64,000 bases of DNA from a virus: IMG/VR virus record IMGVR_UViG_3300020048_000011, one strand, 5' to 3'. The notes beneath the pieces are model-generated. The model made no database searches and was not told the origin of the DNA. It saw nothing but the letters and a program-made list of their open reading frames with translations. The translations under genes and the position numbers were made by a program. Position 1 is the stretch's first letter; the number at the start of each line of letters is the position of its first letter. Below, piece by piece: positions 1,403-46,129 of the stretch.

Positions 1403-4400
1403 ATGAAAAAAGAAATAATTGACACTATTCCAGTTATATTTAGAGCAAAGGATAGGTTACCAATTGATTTTTCTGATGGTCTATCAGTCAAAGAAATTCT
1501 ATTAGATGGACCTAAAGGTAGTAAGGCTATCGGTCATACGCTAGGTGGTCCAGGTGGGCAGGAAATTACCGTTTATGACTTCATGAACTTAATTACTGTA
1601 GCATCTGGTATTAAGAAAACTGAATATAGGTTACCTGTCTATTATGAAGACGGGTTACAGGTAAACGATGAGTTCTTTACTGTATTTCATGACGATAAAC
1701 CGTATAAGCCAAAACCAGAATTAGTACCATTTGTAGCACCAAATGAGTTTGATATTAATAGTTGGATTGAAATGCCAGCTATCGGTACATCAATTACAGG
1801 TATTGGTCCACAGGGCCCTCAGGGCCCTCAAGGTCAAACTGGCCCACAGGGTGAACCAGGCTTAACAGGAGCTACTGGTCCTCAAGGTATCCAAGGCCCA
1901 CAAGGTGCTACTGGTGCCACTGGTGCAGTAGGACCAATTGGACCACAGGGTGTTAAAGGTGATACTGGTGCACAAGGCTCTCAAGGCCAAGCTGGTCCAC
2001 AAGGTCCAGCTGGCACTAATGGCGCACCTGGTCCTCAAGGCCCTGCTGGAACAGATAGCACTGTAGCTGGTCCTCAAGGTGCGCAGGGGTTAACTGGGCC
2101 ACAGGGCCCACAAGGCCCACAAGGCCCAGCTGGGTTAGATTCCACAGTAGCAGGACCACAAGGTCCAACTGGAGTAGATGGTGCTATTGGACCACAGGGC
2201 CCTGTAGGTCCCCAGGGTCTAAAAGGCGATATAGGGTTAACTGGGCCACAGGGTCCTCAAGGTCCTCAAGGACCACAGGGACCGCAAGGTCTACAAGGTG
2301 CTGATGGCGTAAGTGATATCCCAGGACCAGTGGGTCTACAAGGACCAGAAGGCATGATGGGCCCCACAGGTCCACAAGGACCAATTGGACCAGAAGGCCC
2401 AGCCAGCACAGTAGCTGGCCCCCAAGGCCCACAAGGCATTCAAGGCCCAGCTGGGTTAGATTCCACAGTAGCTGGCCCTCAAGGTATAATTGGCCCAATG
2501 GGACCACAGGGACCTAAAGGAGATAAAGGTGACACAGGCGAACAAGGACCGACAGGAGCTACTGGACTCACAGGTCCACAAGGGCTTGCTGGACAAGATA
2601 GCACCGTTGCTGGGCCTCAAGGTCCGCAAGGAGTTATGGGTCCTCCTGGGGATACCGGACCCATGGGTCCGCAGGGAGCAGACAGCACAGTGCCAGGACC
2701 ACAGGGACTACAAGGACCAGAAGGACCTCAGGGCCCAATTGGGGTTACAGGACCTAAAGGAGATACAGGGCCTACAGGACCTAAAGGAGATACGGGACTC
2801 ACAGGCCCAGAAGGACCTGAGGGACCTACTGGACAAGCGTCTACAATCCCAGGTCCAACAGGGCCTCAGGGATTACAGGGTATACAGGGACCAAAGGGTG
2901 ACACCGGAGACCAGGGCTTACAGGGACTCACAGGGCCGCAAGGCATACAGGGTATACAGGGACCAAAGGGCGACACTGGAGACCAGGGCCCAACTGGTTT
3001 AACTGGCCAGCAGGGTGTTAAAGGTGATACTGGAGATACTGGACCCCAGGGCCCAGTAGGTAACGATGGTGTAAGTGACATACCAGGACCACAGGGTCCA
3101 ATTGGGCCCATTGGTTTAACTGGTCCAGAAGGCCCACAGGGACCAATAGGTCCACAGGGTATTCAAGGTATACAGGGTCTAACAGGACCACAAGGTCCAG
3201 CTGGAGCAGATGGTGTAAGTGATATTCCAGGACCACAGGGCCCTGCTGGTGCTGAAGGGTTGATGGGGCCTACCGGACCACAAGGACCAATTGGACCAGA
3301 AGGCCCAGCCAGTACAGTAGCTGGACCGCAGGGTATTCAAGGCCCCAAAGGTGACACTGGCGACACAGGGCCACAAGGACCTAAAGGCGATACTGGGCTT
3401 CAAGGTATACAAGGGTTGACTGGCGACATAGGCCCACAAGGACCTAAAGGTGATACTGGCGCAGATAGTACAGTTGAAGGTCCACAGGGTATTCAAGGAT
3501 CAATTGGTTTAACTGGACCTAAAGGCGATACAGGAGACATTGGTCCACAGGGTATTCAGGGTATTCAAGGTCCAGTTGGATTACAAGGACCAATCGGACC
3601 AGAAGGCCCACAAGGCATTAAAGGCGATGAGGGTTTAGTTGGTTTACAAGGCGATGTTGGTGATACAGGACCTGTAGGACCTAAAGGGGATACTGGAGAT
3701 ACTGGACCACAGGGTATTCAAGGACCTAAAGGGGATACTGGTGATACTGGACCACAGGGTATTCAAGGACCTAAAGGGGATACTGGTGATACTGGACCAC
3801 AGGGTATTCAGGGTTTGACTGGAGCTACTGGCCCACAAGGTTTAGCTGGTGATGACGGTGTGAGTGATATTCCAGGACCACAGGGCCCAATTGGGCCCAC
3901 TGGGCCACAGGGACCTAAAGGTGATACTGGCGCAGATTCTGTAGTACCAGGTCCAGAAGGACCGCAAGGTATCCAGGGAGCAACTGGGCCAATAGGTCCA
4001 CAAGGACCACAGGGTATACAAGGAACTCAGGGCCCTACAGGACCTACAGGTCCAACCGGTCCAGCTGGTGCAGATAGTACAGTTGAAGGTCCACGTGGGC
4101 CAGTAGGGCTAACTGGCCCACAAGGTATCCAGGGTCTCACAGGCCCACAAGGCCCACAAGGTGACCAAGGTATCCAAGGACCAATTGGTCTCACTGGACC
4201 AGCTGGTGCAGATAGTGTAGTGCCAGGGCCTAAAGGGGATACTGGCGATACTGGCCCACAGGGTATTCAGGGTATACAAGGACCACCTGGTGTAGATGGT
4301 ACAGGTGGAGGTTCATTAGCTAATATAGCTATATTTAATACTACGTCTAGATATCAAATAGAACCAGTGTTAGGACAAACAGCATGGTGCGTATCGGCAT

Positions 4401-4969
4401 CTACTGTACATGCATTTTTACAATGGGTAAGAGACACTACATCACTCACAATTACACACGCTGCGCACGGTAGAAGCGTAGGGGACCGTGTAATAATTAG
4501 AGGTGCAGCTGTTAATTATTTAAATGCACTAATTATATCTGTGACTACAGATACGTTTACTGTGGATTGTTTGGATTCAGGCGCTACATCAGGTACAGCA
4601 TGCTCATATACAAATGGATTCACATTTGCACATAATGCAAGTGCAGGTAGCATTTCGTCTTGTGCATTAACTGCACCTAATAACTGTGACGTAGTGTTGC
4701 TGTCAATTAGAATACACTTGAAAGCAGGCACTCGTACAGGTACCACATACAGAATTGCTATACCAAATTCTAGCATTAATGGTGGTGGTGATAATACAAG
4801 TAATGATACTGTATATGCACCGTTACACCAGGTGAGACAAGACACAGACATAATGCCTGTAGTCACCAGTACAATATACATGAATCAATCTGGTTCTAAC
4901 TATTCTACATTCCAACTTAATGCATTACCGGCTAGCACATCCGGTATCATTATGTTATTACAATTTTAA
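1403..4969 (+). CDS. collagen-like fibre protein (about 830 aa of Gly-X-Y repeats, globular N- and C-termini)
   Basis: GPQ/GPT/GDT triplets from about 1800 to 4310, with recurring interruptions (DSTVA, VSDIP). RBS ggag upstream. Confidence 0.85.
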
Positions 4970-4979
4970 AGGAGCATAA

Positions 4980-5672
4980 ATGGCCCGAATAATAAATGGC
5001 GCTCTTTATGTTGATGCATTTACCGCTACTGAAAATTCTGGTGAATATGTCTTCGAAAATGCACTATTCAATAATCAAAACGATATTACTGGAAACGGTG
5101 CATTTGATTTAGCTGTTGGCTTTGTGATATTTATACCTGCTACAAATAGAGACTCAGGTGCAGCCTTAGCTGGTGTGAGTAATAGGTATAAATTCACCAG
5201 TCTTCAGTACATAGATCAATTGCGCGTATCAGGTACAATTATATGGGATAGTTCAGATGAGGAAATAGATGTACCTACAAATGGTACTTTCTGTTTAGTT
5301 TCACAGACTACGCCCAACTTAGGTTTAGCACTGACAGCACCAGATAACTTTTATCCTGATGTACTAGGTGGTAGCACATTAGCAGCAATGCTAAGTGATA
5401 TCATCAACATCATGGATAAGTTAGGTACTGGATCAGGAGCTTTACAAAGCAGATCATCCACAATACTGCCCATTATAACAGATGGACAAACTACATTCAG
5501 TATACCGCATGTGCCTACTGATAAAACTAGTACAATATTAACAGTCAACGGAATGACATATGTTTATGGCGAATCTAACGATTATACGATCGACGGTTCT
5601 ACATTGACATGGATGGATTATTCCATGAAATTGGATACGACAGATAGTATGGTGATCAATTATTCGTATTGA
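4980..5672 (+). CDS. putative tail/fibre-associated structural protein
   Basis: C-terminal module GQTTF...VNG...DYT...LTW...VINY resembles those in the 5723 and 9694 ORFs. RBS aggag. Confidence 0.5.
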   Translation: MARIINGALYVDAFTATENSGEYVFENALFNNQNDITGNGAFDLAVGFVIFIPATNRDSGAALAGVSNRYKFTSLQYIDQLRVSGTIIWDSSDEEIDVPTNGTFCLVSQTTPNLGLALTAPDNFYPDVLGGSTLAAMLSDIINIMDKLGTGSGALQSRSSTILPIITDGQTTFSIPHVPTDKTSTILTVNGMTYVYGESNDYTIDGSTLTWMDYSMKLDTTDSMVINYSY

Positions 5673-5722
5673 CACGTTTTTAGTTTTTCGGTGTTCCTTT
5701 CTTTTTTATAAGGTTTTTGAAA

Positions 5723-6817
5723 ATGAGCTCAACCCAAATTCGCGGCTTGCAACTTCGTTTAGCCACAATTCCTCGTGACCGTATTGATGCAGCTTTTGAA
5801 GCTTCATTGGCCGCCATTGAATCCAATGTCACTAGCATCTTCAACACGATGTCTACTGATAGCGAACGCATGGCCGCTGTCGAAGCTTTGACCACTGCAT
5901 TTCAAGGCGCAGATACCACCCTCCAAGGTGCTATCACTAGCCTAGTCAACGCTACTCGCGCCGGTGCTGGCCTTGAAGCTGATGGTTCTTTGGTTCTTGG
6001 TGATACCAACTATCTTGGCGCTTCTGCTTCTTTGAAGGCAGCCCTTCTTGCACTTGATGCAGCTCTGAAAGTTGAAGCCGATGCACGCATCGCTGCTGAC
6101 GCTGCCCTAGCTTCTGACATTGCTACTTTGACCACTGCTTCCAGCACTGCATTGACCGATGCTATTGCCACTGCTGCTGCTGCTCAAGCTATCATCGACG
6201 CTGCACAAGACGCTGCTCTTGCTACTGAAGTCATAGCTCGTACAAATGCTGACTCTGGCGCTGCTACAGCACTTGCCAATGAAGTCACTGCACGTACAAA
6301 CTCAGACAACACATTGTCTACAGCTATTGCTGATGAAGCAACTGCTCGTACCAATGCAGTTTCATCTGAAGCCACTACACGCGCTACTGCTGACACGACT
6401 CTGCAATCAAACATTGATGCAGAAGCGCTTGCCCGCACGAATGCTGATGGCGTACATACTGCTGCTATTGCTGATGAAGTCACCGCACGTGGCGTCGCTG
6501 TAACTGCTGAAGCTGCTGCACGTGTTGCTGCTGATGAAGCTCTTGATGCACGTATCGACACTATCGAAGGCAATGTTCAGTTTGGTCTTACCTATGACAA
6601 ACTAGTTACCCGTGAAACACCCGCTGGTGATGTAGATGGCGTAAATGCTGTGTTCACACTTGCAAATGTTCCCCATGCCGGTACTGAAACAGTGTTCCTG
6701 AATGGTTTGATGCTTGAACCAGGCGCTACCAATGATTATACATTAGTCGGACAGGAGATCACTTTGACTGCAGCACCATTGACTGGTGACCGCGTTAAAG
6801 TGAGCTATTTTCGCTGA
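5723..6817 (+). CDS. Ala-rich coiled-coil fibre/structural protein
   Basis: Repeats of the form A.E..AR..AD, plus C-terminal GDVDGVNAVFTL...FLNG...DYTL...APLTGDRVKVSY module. Confidence 0.6.
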   Translation: MSSTQIRGLQLRLATIPRDRIDAAFEASLAAIESNVTSIFNTMSTDSERMAAVEALTTAFQGADTTLQGAITSLVNATRAGAGLEADGSLVLGDTNYLGASASLKAALLALDAALKVEADARIAADAALASDIATLTTASSTALTDAIATAAAAQAIIDAAQDAALATEVIARTNADSGAATALANEVTARTNSDNTLSTAIADEATARTNAVSSEATTRATADTTLQSNIDAEALARTNADGVHTAAIADEVTARGVAVTAEAAARVAADEALDARIDTIEGNVQFGLTYDKLVTRETPAGDVDGVNAVFTLANVPHAGTETVFLNGLMLEPGATNDYTLVGQEITLTAAPLTGDRVKVSYFR

Positions 6818-40008: not shown

Positions 40009-40341
40009 ATGTGTTGCCTATGTGTGGATTGGGGGTATATTCTTTACACAACATTGAATGTGGTTGCGTTTTGTAAAAATTTATCAGCGGAAGTATATAT
40101 TGTAGAGAGTGATTTAAATGTTGTTCTCTACGACTAGGGGCCGTAATTGGTCCCTGGTCGTCAACCCAACTCCAGTGGAACTTTGTTGTATGGTTAAAAA
40201 ATATAATCATCCATCATGTTTTGCACGAGTACGTAATCGTGGCGATCTTTGATCCTAAACAAATATGGCCATATATTACTAATATGGATGTGATGTTAAT
40301 TACATCTAAGTTTGCAAACTTTTCATCAAAAGGAAATCGAA

Positions 40342-42231
40342 ATGGCTATTAATCCAGGTACTACTAGTACACTATATGGCGCGCAGCCCCAACCACAACC
40401 AGGCATCGCCCAGCCCCAGCAACCACAACAGCCCCAACAGCCGCCAAGACGCACAATGTCTTTTATGCGCATGGGTGCAATGGGTGGTCTATCCCGCACT
40501 CCTACATCAGAAGCATTGTTGAAGGCAATCACAGTGCTAGGTGAAGAAAGCAAGAAACTTACCCAGAAACCATGGGAGGTATCTTTGATTGCTGTGGATA
40601 ATACTAAAGAAACAATGCTTGCATTCAGCGGCATTATTTTTGCGGTGCGCCGGCTTGACGATCCGGCACGTGGTGTGGCTTACCATACACTCATTCTTGA
40701 GGATTCTGGTGAACCAATTGTAGCGCGTATGGACAACTTCAACAATCGCCAGTTTGAAGTACAACGTTTGGCTAGTGATGCTAATGATACCATCTACTAT
40801 AGTACTGTGGCCAATATCATGGAGAAAGCATATCCAAACACACCAATTACACCAGTAAGTGCCGAAGTGGTTCCACGTGGATTCAATTGGGACGACAAAG
40901 ATACTGTATTGGCACTAGTGCGCAATGCCCAACTTCCAGGTTGCACTGTTCTAGAAACAATGGATCCAGCGTTCATGAATATGGACATTACAGCAATTGA
41001 TCGTGATTCCACATTGAATGTACGTATTGCGTTCAATGAGCCACAACGTATCGATTATTGCGGTTTGCCAGTCAGAAACGATATTGCAATTACTTTATCG
41101 GCCTCATCAATTAAACAGACACAACAAGCTCAACAACTCAGCAATGTCAACACTCAAGATCGCACAGTAGTGATCTCTACTATCGGTGGTTATATCGACC
41201 CAGTGTTTGCTCCAGATACAACTAACATGTACATGGGCTATCCTGGCCAACAAAGAACACCGGCGTTCGCAGCTAACTTTATCATGACAGGCATGGAAAA
41301 CCTGAAGGCTACTACAATTGCATCACAATTGTTGGCGCTTGTTACAGTTACTTCTTTACGGGAAAATAATAACTGGTATCCTTATTACTCGCCACGTCCT
41401 ATAATTAAACAGGGTGGTCAGAACAAAACTGACCTACGTGACATCGGCGTCATTAACATCGAAGGTAACTGCGTAAGCGGTATCCAAGGTGGTTTTGATA
41501 ATTACATTGATACTAAGCTAGGCTCATTCACTGCAGCTGACCTTGGTCAACTCCTACAACGTGCATTCCGTCCAGGTATGCATTTCTCGCTAAGGGTTTC
41601 TGAATGTGGTGCAGACACATGGTACAATGCAGCTTTCTTGGCAGCATCATCAGGTGAAGTAAACGCGATAAATGCTATCCTAACAGAAGCAAACTTCTTA
41701 ACAGGTGGTATCTTCAGTCAGTTCTATGGTACTAATGAATCACCAGTATTGCTTAATAATAACCGTGTGCATCTTGGCTATTACATTAATGAAGATGGTG
41801 TCAAACGCGACATCAGTGACATTGACTACGTAGCTATTATGAACCTAGTTGGCAAGAACGATCCAACTACTGGTGCTCGTTGGGCAAATACATTCTTGAA
41901 ATACGATGAACCATTGGTTTCACGGATGAGCGATCGTAAGAAGATGATCGAGCAAGTGCTTATGAGTGAAATTACATATACTGGATTTGGTCGCATTGTG
42001 ACATTTACCAGTAAATTCATTGACGCATTGTCAAAATCGTGTGCAAAAGCAGGATTAGATATGCGTACTATCAACCCATCCATCACCGGTGACTACTTCT
42101 CACAACGTGCACAAGCCGATTACCTCGGCCAAGTACAAGTGATGCCTGGTCCAACCGGATTGTTCAATCAAGGTTATAACACTTATAATAACTTTGCTGG
42201 ACCTAATCTATTTGTAGGACGTACATTCTGA
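40342..42231 (+). CDS. chmA: chimallin, major nuclear shell protein (phiKZ gp54-like)
   Basis: 629 aa, directly upstream of the nvRNAP beta-prime gene. Disordered Q/P-rich N-terminus, low-complexity C-tail, and CATATATTAC promoter core at 40270. Confidence 0.75.
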   Translation: MAINPGTTSTLYGAQPQPQPGIAQPQQPQQPQQPPRRTMSFMRMGAMGGLSRTPTSEALLKAITVLGEESKKLTQKPWEVSLIAVDNTKETMLAFSGIIFAVRRLDDPARGVAYHTLILEDSGEPIVARMDNFNNRQFEVQRLASDANDTIYYSTVANIMEKAYPNTPITPVSAEVVPRGFNWDDKDTVLALVRNAQLPGCTVLETMDPAFMNMDITAIDRDSTLNVRIAFNEPQRIDYCGLPVRNDIAITLSASSIKQTQQAQQLSNVNTQDRTVVISTIGGYIDPVFAPDTTNMYMGYPGQQRTPAFAANFIMTGMENLKATTIASQLLALVTVTSLRENNNWYPYYSPRPIIKQGGQNKTDLRDIGVINIEGNCVSGIQGGFDNYIDTKLGSFTAADLGQLLQRAFRPGMHFSLRVSECGADTWYNAAFLAASSGEVNAINAILTEANFLTGGIFSQFYGTNESPVLLNNNRVHLGYYINEDGVKRDISDIDYVAIMNLVGKNDPTTGARWANTFLKYDEPLVSRMSDRKKMIEQVLMSEITYTGFGRIVTFTSKFIDALSKSCAKAGLDMRTINPSITGDYFSQRAQADYLGQVQVMPGPTGLFNQGYNTYNNFAGPNLFVGRTF

Positions 42232-42329
42232 TATAAAAGATAAGTAGTGCAGAAGCTTTATTGGGTGTTGCTCACGCAACATCCAATTTTGCCCCATTTT
42301 CATTTTTAATTTATAGAAGGATATTTATT

Positions 42330-45300
42330 ATGGGTACATTCTTATACTTACAAAATCATGACGATGTTTTCAATAGATCCACAATTGCTCCTATCATAGT
42401 TAATGACATTAGTACAGCTACTATTGAGCAAAAAGAATATTTGGACAATTTGATTACTACTAGATATGAAGGTGATTTATTATGCAATGAACCGTCCTGT
42501 GAGTGCGGGGAGCTTAAAGGTGGTTACAATCTAAACACAGTGTGTCGAAACTGTAAGACACCTGTAAAAGAGATATTTGATCAGGAGTTACAGACATTAG
42601 TCTGGATGCGATCACCACATGGCGTAGAAAAGCTGATAAACCCAATGGTGTTATTACAACTTTCATCTCATTTTACAAAAGGTGGGTTTAATATCATTGA
42701 GTGGTTATGCAATACTGACTATCATCCAGCTATTGTTAGGCCACGTGAATTAGAAGAGTTAGCAGTACAGGGTGTAGTGCGTGGATATAATAACTTTGTA
42801 AAGAACTTCGATGCTTACCTTAATATTCTTTTCACATTGAAGCAGTTCAAACCAAAGGAACCAGCTGCACAGGAATTGATTGAGCATTTAAAGCAAAATA
42901 GAGCTAATGTGTTTAGTTGGCATTTACCATTGCCAAATAAATCACTTATGGTAATTGAGAATACACCGGTAGGTGTATTTATAGACCCAATCATTATTGG
43001 TGCAGTGGATGCAGTTAGGACTATTAGCGGTATAGATACCACATTAACTAATGTTACACCTAAACAGAAGGAAAACCGTACAGCTAAGACATTATTCATA
43101 ATGTCTACCTTCTGTATGAATGTGTATGATCAGATTTTGTCAAGTAAGAATGGCTTGTTTAGAAAGCATGTGTTTGGTAGCAGGAATTACTTTTCGGCTA
43201 GGGCTGTTATCTCTTCCAATACTAAAGCGCATAAATACGATGAACTCCATATCTCTTGGGGTGTTGGTATCACTATGTTGCGGATGCATTTGACAAACAA
43301 ACTACTCAAACTAAAGTGGTCTCCAAATGATGCTACTGCATTGCTGCAGGAGTCAACATACAAATACCATCCATTAGTGGATCAGTTATTTCGTGAACTA
43401 ATAGATAGTAGTCCGGATAAGGGCATATATGTGACCTGGGGACGTAACCCCTCACTCACACGCGGATAAACAATACTTCATTAATTAGCGCGGGTGGCCG
43501 ATAAAATAATAAGTAAATGTCCCTTTTATAAGTAATTATAGAAGATAATCCATTTAACTGCTAGAAACCCCTTAGAGCTGAATCACTACTGCGAGACGAA
43601 AGTCAAAGCCATAGTTTAAAAACGATTCGGATTGGGCAACTAAGCAACTAAGCTCCTAAGTTTGCATTTAATGATCGTGAATGTGTTTATACATATGTAT
43701 AAACTAACAAAAGTAACGATCATGAAGAAAACACACATTGAAAACTATTACGCCACAGAAGACGGTAATATATACTCCGATAAAACTGGTACATTAAAAC
43801 CCATGTCTATTCATACTAGAAAAAATGGGTACCAAACTGTAAAAGTTGCCGGTTGTAGTTTAGTACATCGTCTTGTTGCAAGCGCTTTTATTGGGGAAAT
43901 AACTGGACTCACGATCAATCACAAAGACGGGAATCCAACAAATAACCATATTAGCAATTTGGAAATAGTTACAATGAAAGAAAATATCCAACATGCTTGG
44001 AATACTGGCCTATCTAAAAAAGGAGAGGGGCATAGTAGGGCTAAATTCACAGATATAGAAATATCTGAAGCTTTGGAAACCATAGCTTCAGGTGAAACTA
44101 TATCTGCTGCTGCAATTAAGCATGGGATTTCTAGAACATATCTTAACAATGTAAAAAATGGAAGATATCGTTCATAGTGTTGCAAATATGCGAGAAAGCT
44201 CAACGATCAGAGGCGGCGGCCTCGTAGCCATCAAGTGATGTGTGAAACGGTGGACATCCGAACAGGTAACGCTGTGGATGAAGACATGATCTACTATCCT
44301 TTGGAAACTTAGGGATGTTCCTGCCTAACAGGCACAGAGAACTGCATGTATTAACGACACATGTGAATGTAAGGCAAGTCAACGTATGAAAATCACGAAG
44401 GTAAAGACAGATGTGGATGACCAAACAATCACGACACCGATATTGACCGTTAAACAATTTAACGCTATTGTGATATAATTTAATGATTGTATATTGAATT
44501 ATATCTATCTTTGGCCACTATGACAGTAATGTCATATGTGAATTCCATTGAATTGCTGGAAACACTCGTAAGACTAATGAGCCAAAGCAGATAGCGAAAG
44601 CTAAAATGTGATAAATTCAGGCTTGAAAATCATTAGGTAGAGTCAATCAGCAGCCAAGCTCCTTTAAAATGGAGAAGGTTCAACGACTATCCAGGATTGG
44701 AGTAGGGGTTAGTAATCCCGAAGCAGTGGACACTCTAGAGATAGGGTGAAGATATAGTCTAGTCTATATGGAGACATATAGCAGCGCAGCCACTCGTGAG
44801 AGTCGCTGTGGCGGGTAGAGCTTAACGAACTCTATTGAATATAACGGATTTTGACGGAGATCAATAGGTCTCACTTATTAGCAATAATAAGAATAAATAA
44901 CTTCTCTAATTGCTGGGAACTCCCGTTAAATGTGTACACTACAGCTACCGCGAAAGCAGGTAGTCACAGTTTGAAAAGTATACAGTAGGGACAATCAGCA
45001 GCTAAGATCCTAAGGTAGTGAAATCACATATTACTACTATGGATAAAGTTCAACGACTAGGCGTAAGCCGTAGGAGCTAGTAGCTCTGAAATGGGAAGCT
45101 ACCTAGTAATAGGTAGAAGATATAGTCTGCCCTTATATGAGAATATAAGCTGGTACAACATACCGGCTTTCAGTAACGATGAAAGTGGACATATGGCAAA
45201 TGAATTTAATCCTAGCTTTGGATAATGTGACCAGTGGTGAGCTAGAAACTTTGGCACCACATAAAAACATGTATGACCTAAACGAGCCACGCACTTTGTC

Positions 45301-45421
45301 AAAAGCAGCATCTTTACCAAAGACAGTGGTATCCACCATGAGTTCTTGGTTGAACTATGAAAAAGCACCATCAGGTGATCCAGCTAAAAGACAATTTTTA
45401 GAAATGTTAGCTAATACATAA
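42330..45421 (+). CDS. nvRNAP beta-prime N-terminal subunit (phiKZ gp55-gp56.1-like); exons 42330-43467, 44375-44466, 44847-44861, 45197-45421
   Basis: The spliced frame is 1470 nt (489 aa). It reads RNPSLTRG-SSQRM...FNA-DFDGD-QMNL and restores the NADFDGD active site. Zn-finger CECG...CRNC near the N-terminus. Confidence 0.88.
43468..44374 (+). mobile_element. group I intron 1 carrying an HNH endonuclease
   Basis: Exon ends in U and intron ends in G. P AACTGCTAGAAA, R CTCAACGATCA, S AAGACATGATCT; P9.2 with TTAACGA loop. Confidence 0.85.
43722..44177 (+). CDS. intron-encoded HNH homing endonuclease (NUMOD4-like, HNH, HTH)
   Basis: VHRLVA.AF...INHKDGNPTNN..SNLE......N..HA; C-terminal HTH-like segment. 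Confidence 0.9.
   Translation: MKKTHIENYYATEDGNIYSDKTGTLKPMSIHTRKNGYQTVKVAGCSLVHRLVASAFIGEITGLTINHKDGNPTNNHISNLEIVTMKENIQHAWNTGLSKKGEGHSRAKFTDIEISEALETIASGETISAAAIKHGISRTYLNNVKNGRYRS
44467..44846 (+). mobile_element. group I intron 2 (no ORF), inserted at NA|DFDGD
   Basis: P AATTGCTGGAAA, Q AATCAGCAG, R TTCAACGACTA, S AAGATATAGTCT; ends ...GAATATAACG. Confidence 0.88.
44847..44861 (+). other. 15-nt micro-exon encoding DFDGD
   Basis: GATTTTGACGGAGAT between two group I cores. P1 GAGAU pairs with GUCUC, giving a U-G wobble at the 5' splice site of intron 3. Confidence 0.85.
44862..45196 (+). mobile_element. group I intron 3 (no ORF), inserted at DFDGD|Q
   Basis: P AATTGCTGGGAA, Q AATCAGCAG, R TTCAACGACTA, S AAGATATAGTCT; ends in G before CAA ATG AAT. 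Confidence 0.88.
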
Positions 45422-45431
45422 GGAGAGTGAA

Positions 45432-46052
45432 ATGAATTATGCGTTCCCCATGAACGGGTATGGAGCAGATAGTGAATTTGATGCTATTTGCTATGGGCAG
45501 CATCATCCATCAACTATTAACTTTCTTAGAGATCAATTCAATACAGTTAGATCCACATTGACAGAGCCAGCTAGACTCTTTATGGAGAAAGGCAGGGAGA
45601 TGTTTGAGCATTTTAATGGAACTGAAGCAATGAGGTTCGCAAGGGATGTCGTCAATAGAGTAAAAGGTGTTACTTCCATCAATATTGATAATGTAAAACC
45701 ACTAATCACTTTAGCAGAATTGCAGAGCGCTGGTTTAGTTATGCAGCGCTGGGTAATGGCTAATCCTAATGTGAGGGAAAGATATCATAACCAACAACTA
45801 GATGGCTATTTTGGTTCATATATCGATATGTCACCACAGGACATTGGTGTAGATCATTACGACTATAGGAGAGTAATGGATGGTGTTGTTCAAATTACAG
45901 ATAATGCTTGGAAGATAGTACAATATCATGACCAGTTAGTTGAAGGTGACCGTGATCTGATGATAGAGGAGAAAAGTGATATCATACATACATGGAGCGC
46001 TTTAGATTATCTGCTTGCATTAAATGAAGACCCTACCAATCCTAATGGATAG
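45432..46052 (+). CDS. conserved phiKZ-like hypothetical protein
   Basis: RBS aggag; synteny after the beta-prime gene. Confidence 0.65.
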   Translation: MNYAFPMNGYGADSEFDAICYGQHHPSTINFLRDQFNTVRSTLTEPARLFMEKGREMFEHFNGTEAMRFARDVVNRVKGVTSINIDNVKPLITLAELQSAGLVMQRWVMANPNVRERYHNQQLDGYFGSYIDMSPQDIGVDHYDYRRVMDGVVQITDNAWKIVQYHDQLVEGDRDLMIEEKSDIIHTWSALDYLLALNEDPTNPNG

Positions 46053-46129
46053 TAGGTTATAGCCAACATATGGCACCTACTGCACTTAATAGTGCAGTAG
46101 GTGCCAATTCTATTTAAGGATATTTTAAA

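Follow-up and report, generated by a model that had tools for sequence, protein, structure and literature searches.

Three predicted group I introns leave the catalytic DFDGD codons of a phage RNA polymerase gene alone on a 15-nucleotide exon

How a gene can keep its catalytic codons readable when introns have settled directly on both sides of them is the question raised by a 64,000-nucleotide stretch of DNA (referred to here as the window) from the metagenome assembly of an uncultured virus, IMG/VR record IMGVR_UViG_3300020048_000011, with a G+C content of 40%. In this window the gene for an RNA polymerase subunit is interrupted three times, and the second and third interruptions leave between them an exon of 15 nucleotides, GATTTTGACGGAGAT, on which the five magnesium-binding codons of the DFDGD motif stand alone. 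In every multisubunit RNA polymerase, the three aspartates of this motif bind the catalytic magnesium. Judged from sequence, it is very probable that three mobile group I introns, all belonging to one broad family of phage introns, invaded the gene, and that all of them must splice out for a 489-amino acid active subunit to be made.

The identity of the interrupted gene follows from its first exon, whose 379 codons retrieved 289 phage records in a tblastn search, all of them homologues of phiKZ gp55 and PhiPA3 gp054; the top match was in Burkholderia phage FLC9 (45.6%), and PhiPA3 gp054 itself matched at 34.6% (E 7e-71). We therefore assign the predicted product to the phiKZ gp55 family, as the N-terminal beta-prime subunit of the non-virion RNA polymerase (nvRNAP). 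The unspliced reading frame halts at 43469, shortly past ...RNPSLTRG, and the predicted layout of the gene is as follows.

42330-43467, forward strand: exon 1, 1138 nucleotides, ending ...CGC GGA T, the last T of which opens a Ser codon.
43468-44374, forward strand: intron 1, group I, 907 nucleotides, with its final G at 44374.
44375-44466, forward strand: exon 2, 92 nucleotides, encoding together with the last base of exon 1 SSQRMKITKVKTDVDDQTITTPILTVKQFNA and ending in GCT.
44467-44846, forward strand: intron 2, group I, 380 nucleotides, without an open reading frame (ORF), with its final G at 44846.
44847-44861, forward strand: micro-exon, 15 nucleotides, GAT TTT GAC GGA GAT, encoding DFDGD.
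44862-45196, forward strand: intron 3, group I, 335 nucleotides, without an ORF, with its final G at 45196.
45197-45421, forward strand: exon 4, 225 nucleotides, encoding QMNLILALDNVT... up to the stop codon.

The coordinates of the DFDGD exon, and three group I introns between 43468 and 45196, had been proposed in a preliminary description of the locus and hold both on reading of the sequence and against Rfam; its estimate of three group I cores within about 110 nucleotides of coding sequence becomes, on measurement, 107 nucleotides between the first and the third insertion site (92 of exon 2 and 15 of the micro-exon). In protein terms the insertions fall at RGS/S, NA/D and DFDGD/Q, where a slash marks the boundary. 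Joined through the predicted junctions GGAT/CAAG, ACGCT/GATT and GAGAT/CAAA, the four exons form a reading frame of 1470 nucleotides and 489 amino acids, and the claim that this frame is clean is borne out by its alignment to the uninterrupted homologues FLC9 gp381 and PhiPA3 gp054, which is gapless over all three junctions (...RNPSLTRGSSQRMKITKVKTDVDDQTITTPILTVKQFNADFDGDQMNLILALD... in the window protein vs ...RNPSLERGSAQLVYITKVKTVVEIPTVSISILDVKGLNADFDGDQLNFTPCLD... in FLC9). The spliced product can be aligned end to end with the gp55 family with NADFDGDQMN in register, and the exons are free of frameshifts and stops and retain all conserved residues. Because the micro-exon follows an intron-final G, ends in an exon-final U, lies in frame and restores the universal NADFDGDQMN, we regard a chance origin as excluded on sequence grounds. 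A shifted junction for intron 2, with the exon ending in ...GC and the intron in ...C, would give the same protein and was rejected since it violates both the U rule and the G rule. An in-frame stop lies early in each intron (TAA at 43467-43469, across the junction; TAA at 44476-44478; TAG at 44865-44867), so that unspliced RNA would give a truncated product only and no long aberrant protein.

That the interruptions are group I introns was assessed with the Rfam covariance model RF00028, whose gathering score is 50 bits. Intron 2 matches the model at 44495-44781 with 97 bits and intron 3 at 44841-45149 with 93.4 bits. Intron 1 reaches 18 bits with its core motifs legible in the sequence, a low score that we attribute to the 534-nucleotide endonuclease cassette occupying one of its loops. 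The intron found at the same site in a related phage, L003, is 87-88% identical to intron 1 of the window, has no gene in that loop and scores 54.6 bits; this orthologue, above threshold without the gene, argues that intron 1 is a genuine group I intron and the endonuclease gene an independent insert. The covariance model, a check suggested in the preliminary description, thus supports introns 2 and 3 directly, and intron 1 through the L003 orthologue. The boundaries follow one rule throughout, as an exon-final U and an intron-final G are present in 14/14 introns mapped in six metagenomic phages (three in the window and 11 others), and also in Xanthomonas phage LucasX (by sequence reading), phiKZ and Goslar.

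Unconstrained minimum-energy folds of the 5' ends recovered the P1 and P2 helices in all three introns of the window, with a U-G wobble at the splice site in each P1 (U at 43467, 44466 and 44861). The guide sequences that would pair with the exon ends are the following.

43518-43522, forward strand: guide sequence of intron 1, UGUCC, pairing with GGAU/A at 43464-43468, with the wobble U43467-G43519.
44512-44515, forward strand: guide sequence of intron 2, UGGC, pairing with GCU/A at 44464-44467, with a long hairpin inside the P1 loop.
44867-44872, forward strand: guide sequence of intron 3, GGUCUC, pairing with GAGAU/C at 44857-44862, with the wobble U44861-G44868.

The 5' fold of intron 2 has z = -5.1, and its GGC guide is common to the introns at the same site in the relatives L003, L004 and L013; that of intron 3 has an ensemble frequency of 0.89 and z = -3.5. 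An alternative P1 for intron 3 reported by cmscan, in which the micro-exon pairs with itself, was rejected, as the pairing of GAGAUC with GGUCUC is the minimum-energy fold and places the wobble at the true junction. For P10 only weak candidates of 3-4 base pairs were seen, none of them convincing. Selection on structure is evident from an RNAalifold consensus of 11 introns (introns 2 and 3 of the window and nine from relatives, aligned with MAFFT, the P7 pseudoknot not being scored), which contains 61 pairs, 46 of them kept through changes on both sides; compensatory change on this scale argues that the intron cores are under selection for structure. Introns 2 and 3 have similar 3' ends, with a terminal hairpin bearing a UAACGA-type loop, and are about 70% identical overall, which argues that they are not recent copies of each other. 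Part of the intron 2 core (44623-44691) is 90-96% identical over 46-68 nucleotides to sequences in the Staphylococcus phages CF5, MR003 and PG-2021_35, and these matches suggest a single intron family widespread among phages. In intron 1, the P1 loop (43468-43520) holds AGCGCGGGU, resembling the exon end ACGCGGAU, and may preserve the remnant of an earlier insertion or repair event.

The distribution of the introns over chimalliviruses is patchy. Ten relatives were obtained by protein-guided searches of IMG/VR and JGI contigs, and homology together with the U/G rules served to map their junctions. With positions numbered from the start of the DFDGD codons, 11 different insertion positions were found in this gene, eight of them within 27 nucleotides, with one to three introns per related phage.

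Position -103: an intron in L011.
Position -92: intron 1 of the window, and L003.
Position -9: Xanthomonas phage LucasX.
Position -8: L006.
Position -3: phiKZ.
Position 0: intron 2 of the window, L003, L004 and L013.
Position +3: L006 and L011.
Position +5: Goslar.
Position +12: L003 and L004.
Position +15: intron 3 of the window, and L006.
Position +18: Goslar.

Micro-exons recur in this series, with 15 nucleotides in the window, 12 in L003 and L004, 11 and 12 in L006, and 13 in Goslar. The gene is identical between L003 and L008, and likewise between L004 and L012. Intron-less genes occur in L007, the closest relative found (73% amino acid identity), where the uninterrupted site reads ...CGTGGATCTTCA..., and in L009, L010, L005 and FLC9. 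Such patchy occupancy marks the introns as mobile and does not fit a gene structure that is old and fixed. Intron 1 of the window and its L003 orthologue share far more identity than the flanking exons (62-68%), which fits recent horizontal movement. Among the 60 best-matching isolates only LucasX (MW825358) gave a split match; its intron, at 1540-1953, scores 54.7 bits, lies between KA and PNADFDGD and is unannotated, the gp55 homologue being listed as two hypothetical proteins, LUCX_60 and LUCX_61. An intron at NA/D in L013 (5926-6293) has all core motifs and the GGC guide and yet falls under the Rfam gathering score, which indicates that threshold scans under-count this intron family.

The probable agent of this movement lies within intron 1.

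43660-44193, forward strand: endonuclease cassette, 534 nucleotides, in a peripheral loop (P6 region) of intron 1.
43722-44177, forward strand: gene for a predicted I-HmuI-like HNH homing endonuclease of 151 amino acids, with HNH_3 and helix-turn-helix domains.

The predicted protein scores 44.4 bits against Pfam HNH_3 (cut-off 24.8) and 23 bits against HTH_psq, matches the structure of I-HmuI (PDB 1U3E) over residues 8-108 with E 6.4e-9, and is 35% identical to phiKZ gp56. I-HmuI has reportedly been demonstrated to nick intron-less alleles, as has PhiPA3 gp210 (PMC11620839). By analogy, the intron 1 protein probably nicks intron-less alleles in mixed infections, thereby spreading intron 1 together with nearby markers. 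A wetland metagenome run of 2024 contains a near-identical intron 1 in which the 16 bases ACAGTAAAGGCACGGG replace 43660-44193, joining 43659 to 44194, and the same run matches exon 4 and the gene after it at 100% identity; a very close relative, lacking the endonuclease gene, thus lives in a second habitat. In L003, the intron at this site carries a different HNH gene, of 431 amino acids, placed in the P1 loop. The intron ORFs of the relatives are all of the HNH_3 type and differ in size and in place within the intron. The preliminary description had assigned an endonuclease to intron 1 only, and introns 2 and 3 are in fact without an ORF. L004 has an intron at the intron 2 site with an HNH gene of its own and lacks intron 1, and introns of this kind therefore also move independently. 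Since introns 2 and 3 lie 92 and 107 nucleotides downstream of intron 1, within plausible repair tracts, their co-conversion with intron 1, raised in the preliminary description, is plausible.

Taking the observed intron identity, boundaries, restored frame, structural covariation and patchy distribution together, we propose that three separate invasions of the gene led to the present arrangement. Each intron would recognize its 5' splice site independently through its own guide sequence, and guanosine-initiated, two-step self-splicing would remove all three to give a messenger RNA for an intact NADFDGD subunit, while RNA that remains unspliced would encode an inactive fragment. Chimalliviruses separate transcription, inside the shell, from translation (PMC12908238), and splicing therefore likely occurs without ribosomes on the RNA. 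The HNH endonuclease of intron 1 would nick intron-less alleles of co-infecting relatives and thus drive homing. Introns 2 and 3 would have lost endonuclease genes of their own, or never had them, and may persist by vertical descent or by way of repair tracts started by a neighboring or trans-acting endonuclease. The 15-nucleotide exon would then have arisen incidentally, from two independent insertions into the stretch of the gene whose DNA is most conserved, and would not be a designed module. We infer splicing, endonuclease activity and homing from sequence, and several points weigh against the scheme: the copy of intron 1 in the window falls below the Rfam threshold, the P1 of intron 2 contains only three exon base pairs, no RNA run was among the sequencing runs listed as containing this DNA, a long-read transcriptome study of phiKZ reported no sign that the predicted introns are spliced under the conditions used (PMC10914365), and the window is a metagenome assembly that has T at 44822 where the Logan contig bearing the micro-exon has C.

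The last of these points bears on the soundness of the assembly, for which we compared 42200-45700 of the window with Logan contigs of the probable source run, an aquatic metagenome. Similar intron cores could have made the assembler join different loci, the real gene then having fewer introns, and the contigs do break in the repeated intron cores, at 44673, 44786 and 44821. Two further contigs share the intron 3' tail (44792-44849) and then run into different DNA, their continuations being absent from the window: one of 5939 nucleotides diverges at 44849, continuing after ...AACGGAT with AAAGGAGTCATAGTGCAT..., and one of 3338 nucleotides departs at 44817. These suggest that the sample, and perhaps this phage, has more introns with an almost identical 3' end. 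The T version at 44822 belongs to a contig leading elsewhere, and the mismatch, which also speaks for a mixed assembly, may reflect slight mixing of repeated intron tails in the consensus; it lies in a hairpin loop and leaves the reading unaffected. Against a false join, one unbroken contig covers 44792-45700, from the tail of intron 2 through the micro-exon and intron 3 to exon 4 and the gene that follows, and another covers 43597-44673, which takes in the 3' portion of intron 1, the whole of exon 2 and the 5' half of intron 2; each piece is required to restore the reading frame; and the same architecture occurs in the separate assemblies L003/L008, L004/L012 and L006 and in the isolate Goslar. 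An assembly artifact is accordingly very unlikely. It is scarcely credible, in turn, that the introns have decayed and no longer splice, leaving the gene a relic and the active subunit to be encoded at another place in the genome. The window is part of a genome and there is room for a second copy outside it, but the exons are intact as described above, the ribozyme cores keep every conserved element with introns 2 and 3 far above threshold, and a gp55-type subunit belongs to the core gene set of phiKZ-like phages. The preliminary description had named another intact NADFDGD gene as a finding that would overturn it; DFDGD occurs once only across the six frames of the window, and no second gp55-type copy was found there or in the partial records of three relatives (17-38% complete, with one copy each).

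A more delicate matter is whether the micro-exon imposes an order on splicing. According to the preliminary description, the same 15 nucleotides must serve introns 2 and 3 and imply ordered or competing splicing. As stated, this is not supported, since the P1 requirements of the two introns do not overlap: the P1 of intron 3 uses only the last five nucleotides of the micro-exon and the first base of the intron itself, and the P1 of intron 2 uses exon 2. With a self-contained P1 in each intron, no splicing order is required. The companion claim, that skipping of the micro-exon would stay in frame, is correct, because the end of exon 2 and the start of exon 4 both coincide with codon boundaries; the predicted skipped product would lose the magnesium ligands with its frame intact. 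One could therefore propose an obligatory order, or competition over the shared exon, with transcripts lacking DFDGD as regular and possibly functional products, for example as a dominant-negative subunit tuning late transcription. Given the similar 3' ends of introns 2 and 3, the ribozyme of one could act on the 3' splice site of the other, the micro-exon can form a small hairpin of its own (the one misread as P1 by cmscan), and there is precedent: experiments on phages have demonstrated both small exons between group I introns and the skipping of such exons (PMC11512511, PMC11878797), the latter paper giving 47% skipped transcripts for SIOphi and describing skipping also in Twort orf142. Beyond the non-overlapping P1 helices, this proposal is weakened by the 11-nucleotide exon of L006 and the 13-nucleotide exon of Goslar, which would shift the frame if skipped, so that an in-frame dead isoform is not conserved, and by placozoan cox1, where both kinds of splicing intermediate, and hence both splicing orders, are seen around a 1-nucleotide exon between two group I introns (PMC5436844). 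Skipping of the micro-exon, inferred by analogy, is a fair hypothesis with precedent; an obligatory order or a regular function for skipped transcripts is improbable. It is likewise improbable that the accumulation of introns is non-neutral, either in that the introns shield the DFDGD codons, the most conserved and most targetable DNA of the gene, from endonucleases of competing chimalliviruses while the intron 1 nuclease attacks intron-less rivals, or in that the micro-exon allows a controlled fraction of skipped, dead subunit to act as a regulator.

Independent insertion followed by complete splicing, the reading that we prefer, places the window within a series of known systems. For phiKZ gp55, a prediction of 2002 that both PMC10914365 and PMC11512511 cite placed a group I intron containing an HNH gene in this gene, and we confirm it as an intron of 1372 nucleotides at N/ADFDGD, with 75.6 bits against Rfam and a spliced product of 488 amino acids. 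The phiKZ locus (gp55/gp56/gp56.1) resembles that of the window in the gene, which likewise lies beside the shell gene, in the core type (about 72% identical to intron 2 of the window), in the endonuclease family and in a point of insertion only 3 nucleotides from the intron 2 site; it differs in having one intron (-3) and no micro-exon, whereas the window has three introns (-92, 0, +15). A further case is Goslar (Goslar_00188 to Goslar_00185, MK327938), in which two introns in the same gene flank a 13-nucleotide exon, CGACGGTGACGCT, that completes FDGDA. They lie within 4257-6064 and measure 1440 nucleotides (with an HNH/NUMOD1 gene) and 355 nucleotides, and the spliced product is intact; unlike those of the window, they number two and not three and are inserted at +5 and +18. 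The GenBank record of Goslar has one 'Intron_gpI' feature, and neither intron reached the Rfam gathering score. Our literature search found no paper describing the Goslar micro-exon or any DFDGD micro-exon.

Other parallels are of a more general kind. PhiPA3 gp210 is the nicking HNH endonuclease of an intron in the virion RNA polymerase (vRNAP) beta gene and, in a model that has been tested, attacks a co-infecting relative at its intron-less allele (Birkholz et al. 2024, PMC11620839). There, as in the window, a group I intron with an HNH gene lies at the catalytic residues of a chimallivirus RNA polymerase subunit; unlike the window, PhiPA3 concerns another subunit of another polymerase, has a single intron and has its function shown experimentally. 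Bacillus and Staphylococcus phages provide documented cases of genes with several introns, of small exons between them and of exon skipping. Twort orf142, phiNIT1 rNDPL and SIOphi resemble the window in having up to three group I introns per gene and a small exon between two of them, with measured skipping; the host genes named there for Twort-like and Bastille-like phages are those for tail tube, DNA polymerase, terminase and reductase, and these phages, unlike chimalliviruses, do not form a nucleus (PMC11878797). In placozoan mitochondrial cox1, as in the window, two complete group I introns enclose an exon much shorter than the usual P1 target, and this exon provides a catalytic residue that is essential, although this is an organelle gene, its exon is a single nucleotide and RNA-seq evidence exists for both intermediates (PMC5436844).

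A group I intron at this motif is therefore already known from phiKZ gp55, and the window is a crowded example of a known habit of mobile phage introns; what is distinctive in it is the presence of three introns within so short a distance, an exon that isolates DFDGD exactly, and a hotspot whose breadth emerges from the comparison of relatives. The locus shows how far mobile introns can crowd the active-site codons of an enzyme, while exons of only 11-15 nucleotides must still be recognized by two ribozymes. It provides a natural series for asking how short a 5' exon a group I ribozyme can use, whether exon skipping occurs and how endonucleases with overlapping targets are stacked, and the cultured phages Goslar, phiKZ and LucasX make these questions open to bench work. 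For annotation, the practical point is that gene callers break this core gene up or cut it short, as happened in LucasX, and can miss the catalytic motif altogether.

The neighborhood of the gene agrees with its assignment. Directly upstream, at 40339-42231, lies an ORF for chimallin, the nuclear shell protein (Pfam Chimallin, E 1e-32), and the interrupted gene begins at 42330; the order of chimallin followed by the gp55 homologue is the same in PhiPA3, phiKZ and Goslar. On these sequence features the source of the window is assigned as an uncultured nucleus-forming giant phage, a chimallivirus. Megablast found no near-identical phage in GenBank, the only matches being those of 46-68 nucleotides between the intron core and Staphylococcus phages, and the same phage was not found among IMG/VR or JGI contigs, where the top relatives have 73% and 69% protein identity. 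Scans for promoters, terminators and the motif TATATTAC gave nothing above chance in the examined gene stretch. Further downstream, after the gene at 45432-46052, a strong terminator-like hairpin of 16 pairs followed by a T-rich tail lies at 46071-46106 and probably ends the transcription unit that holds the split polymerase gene.

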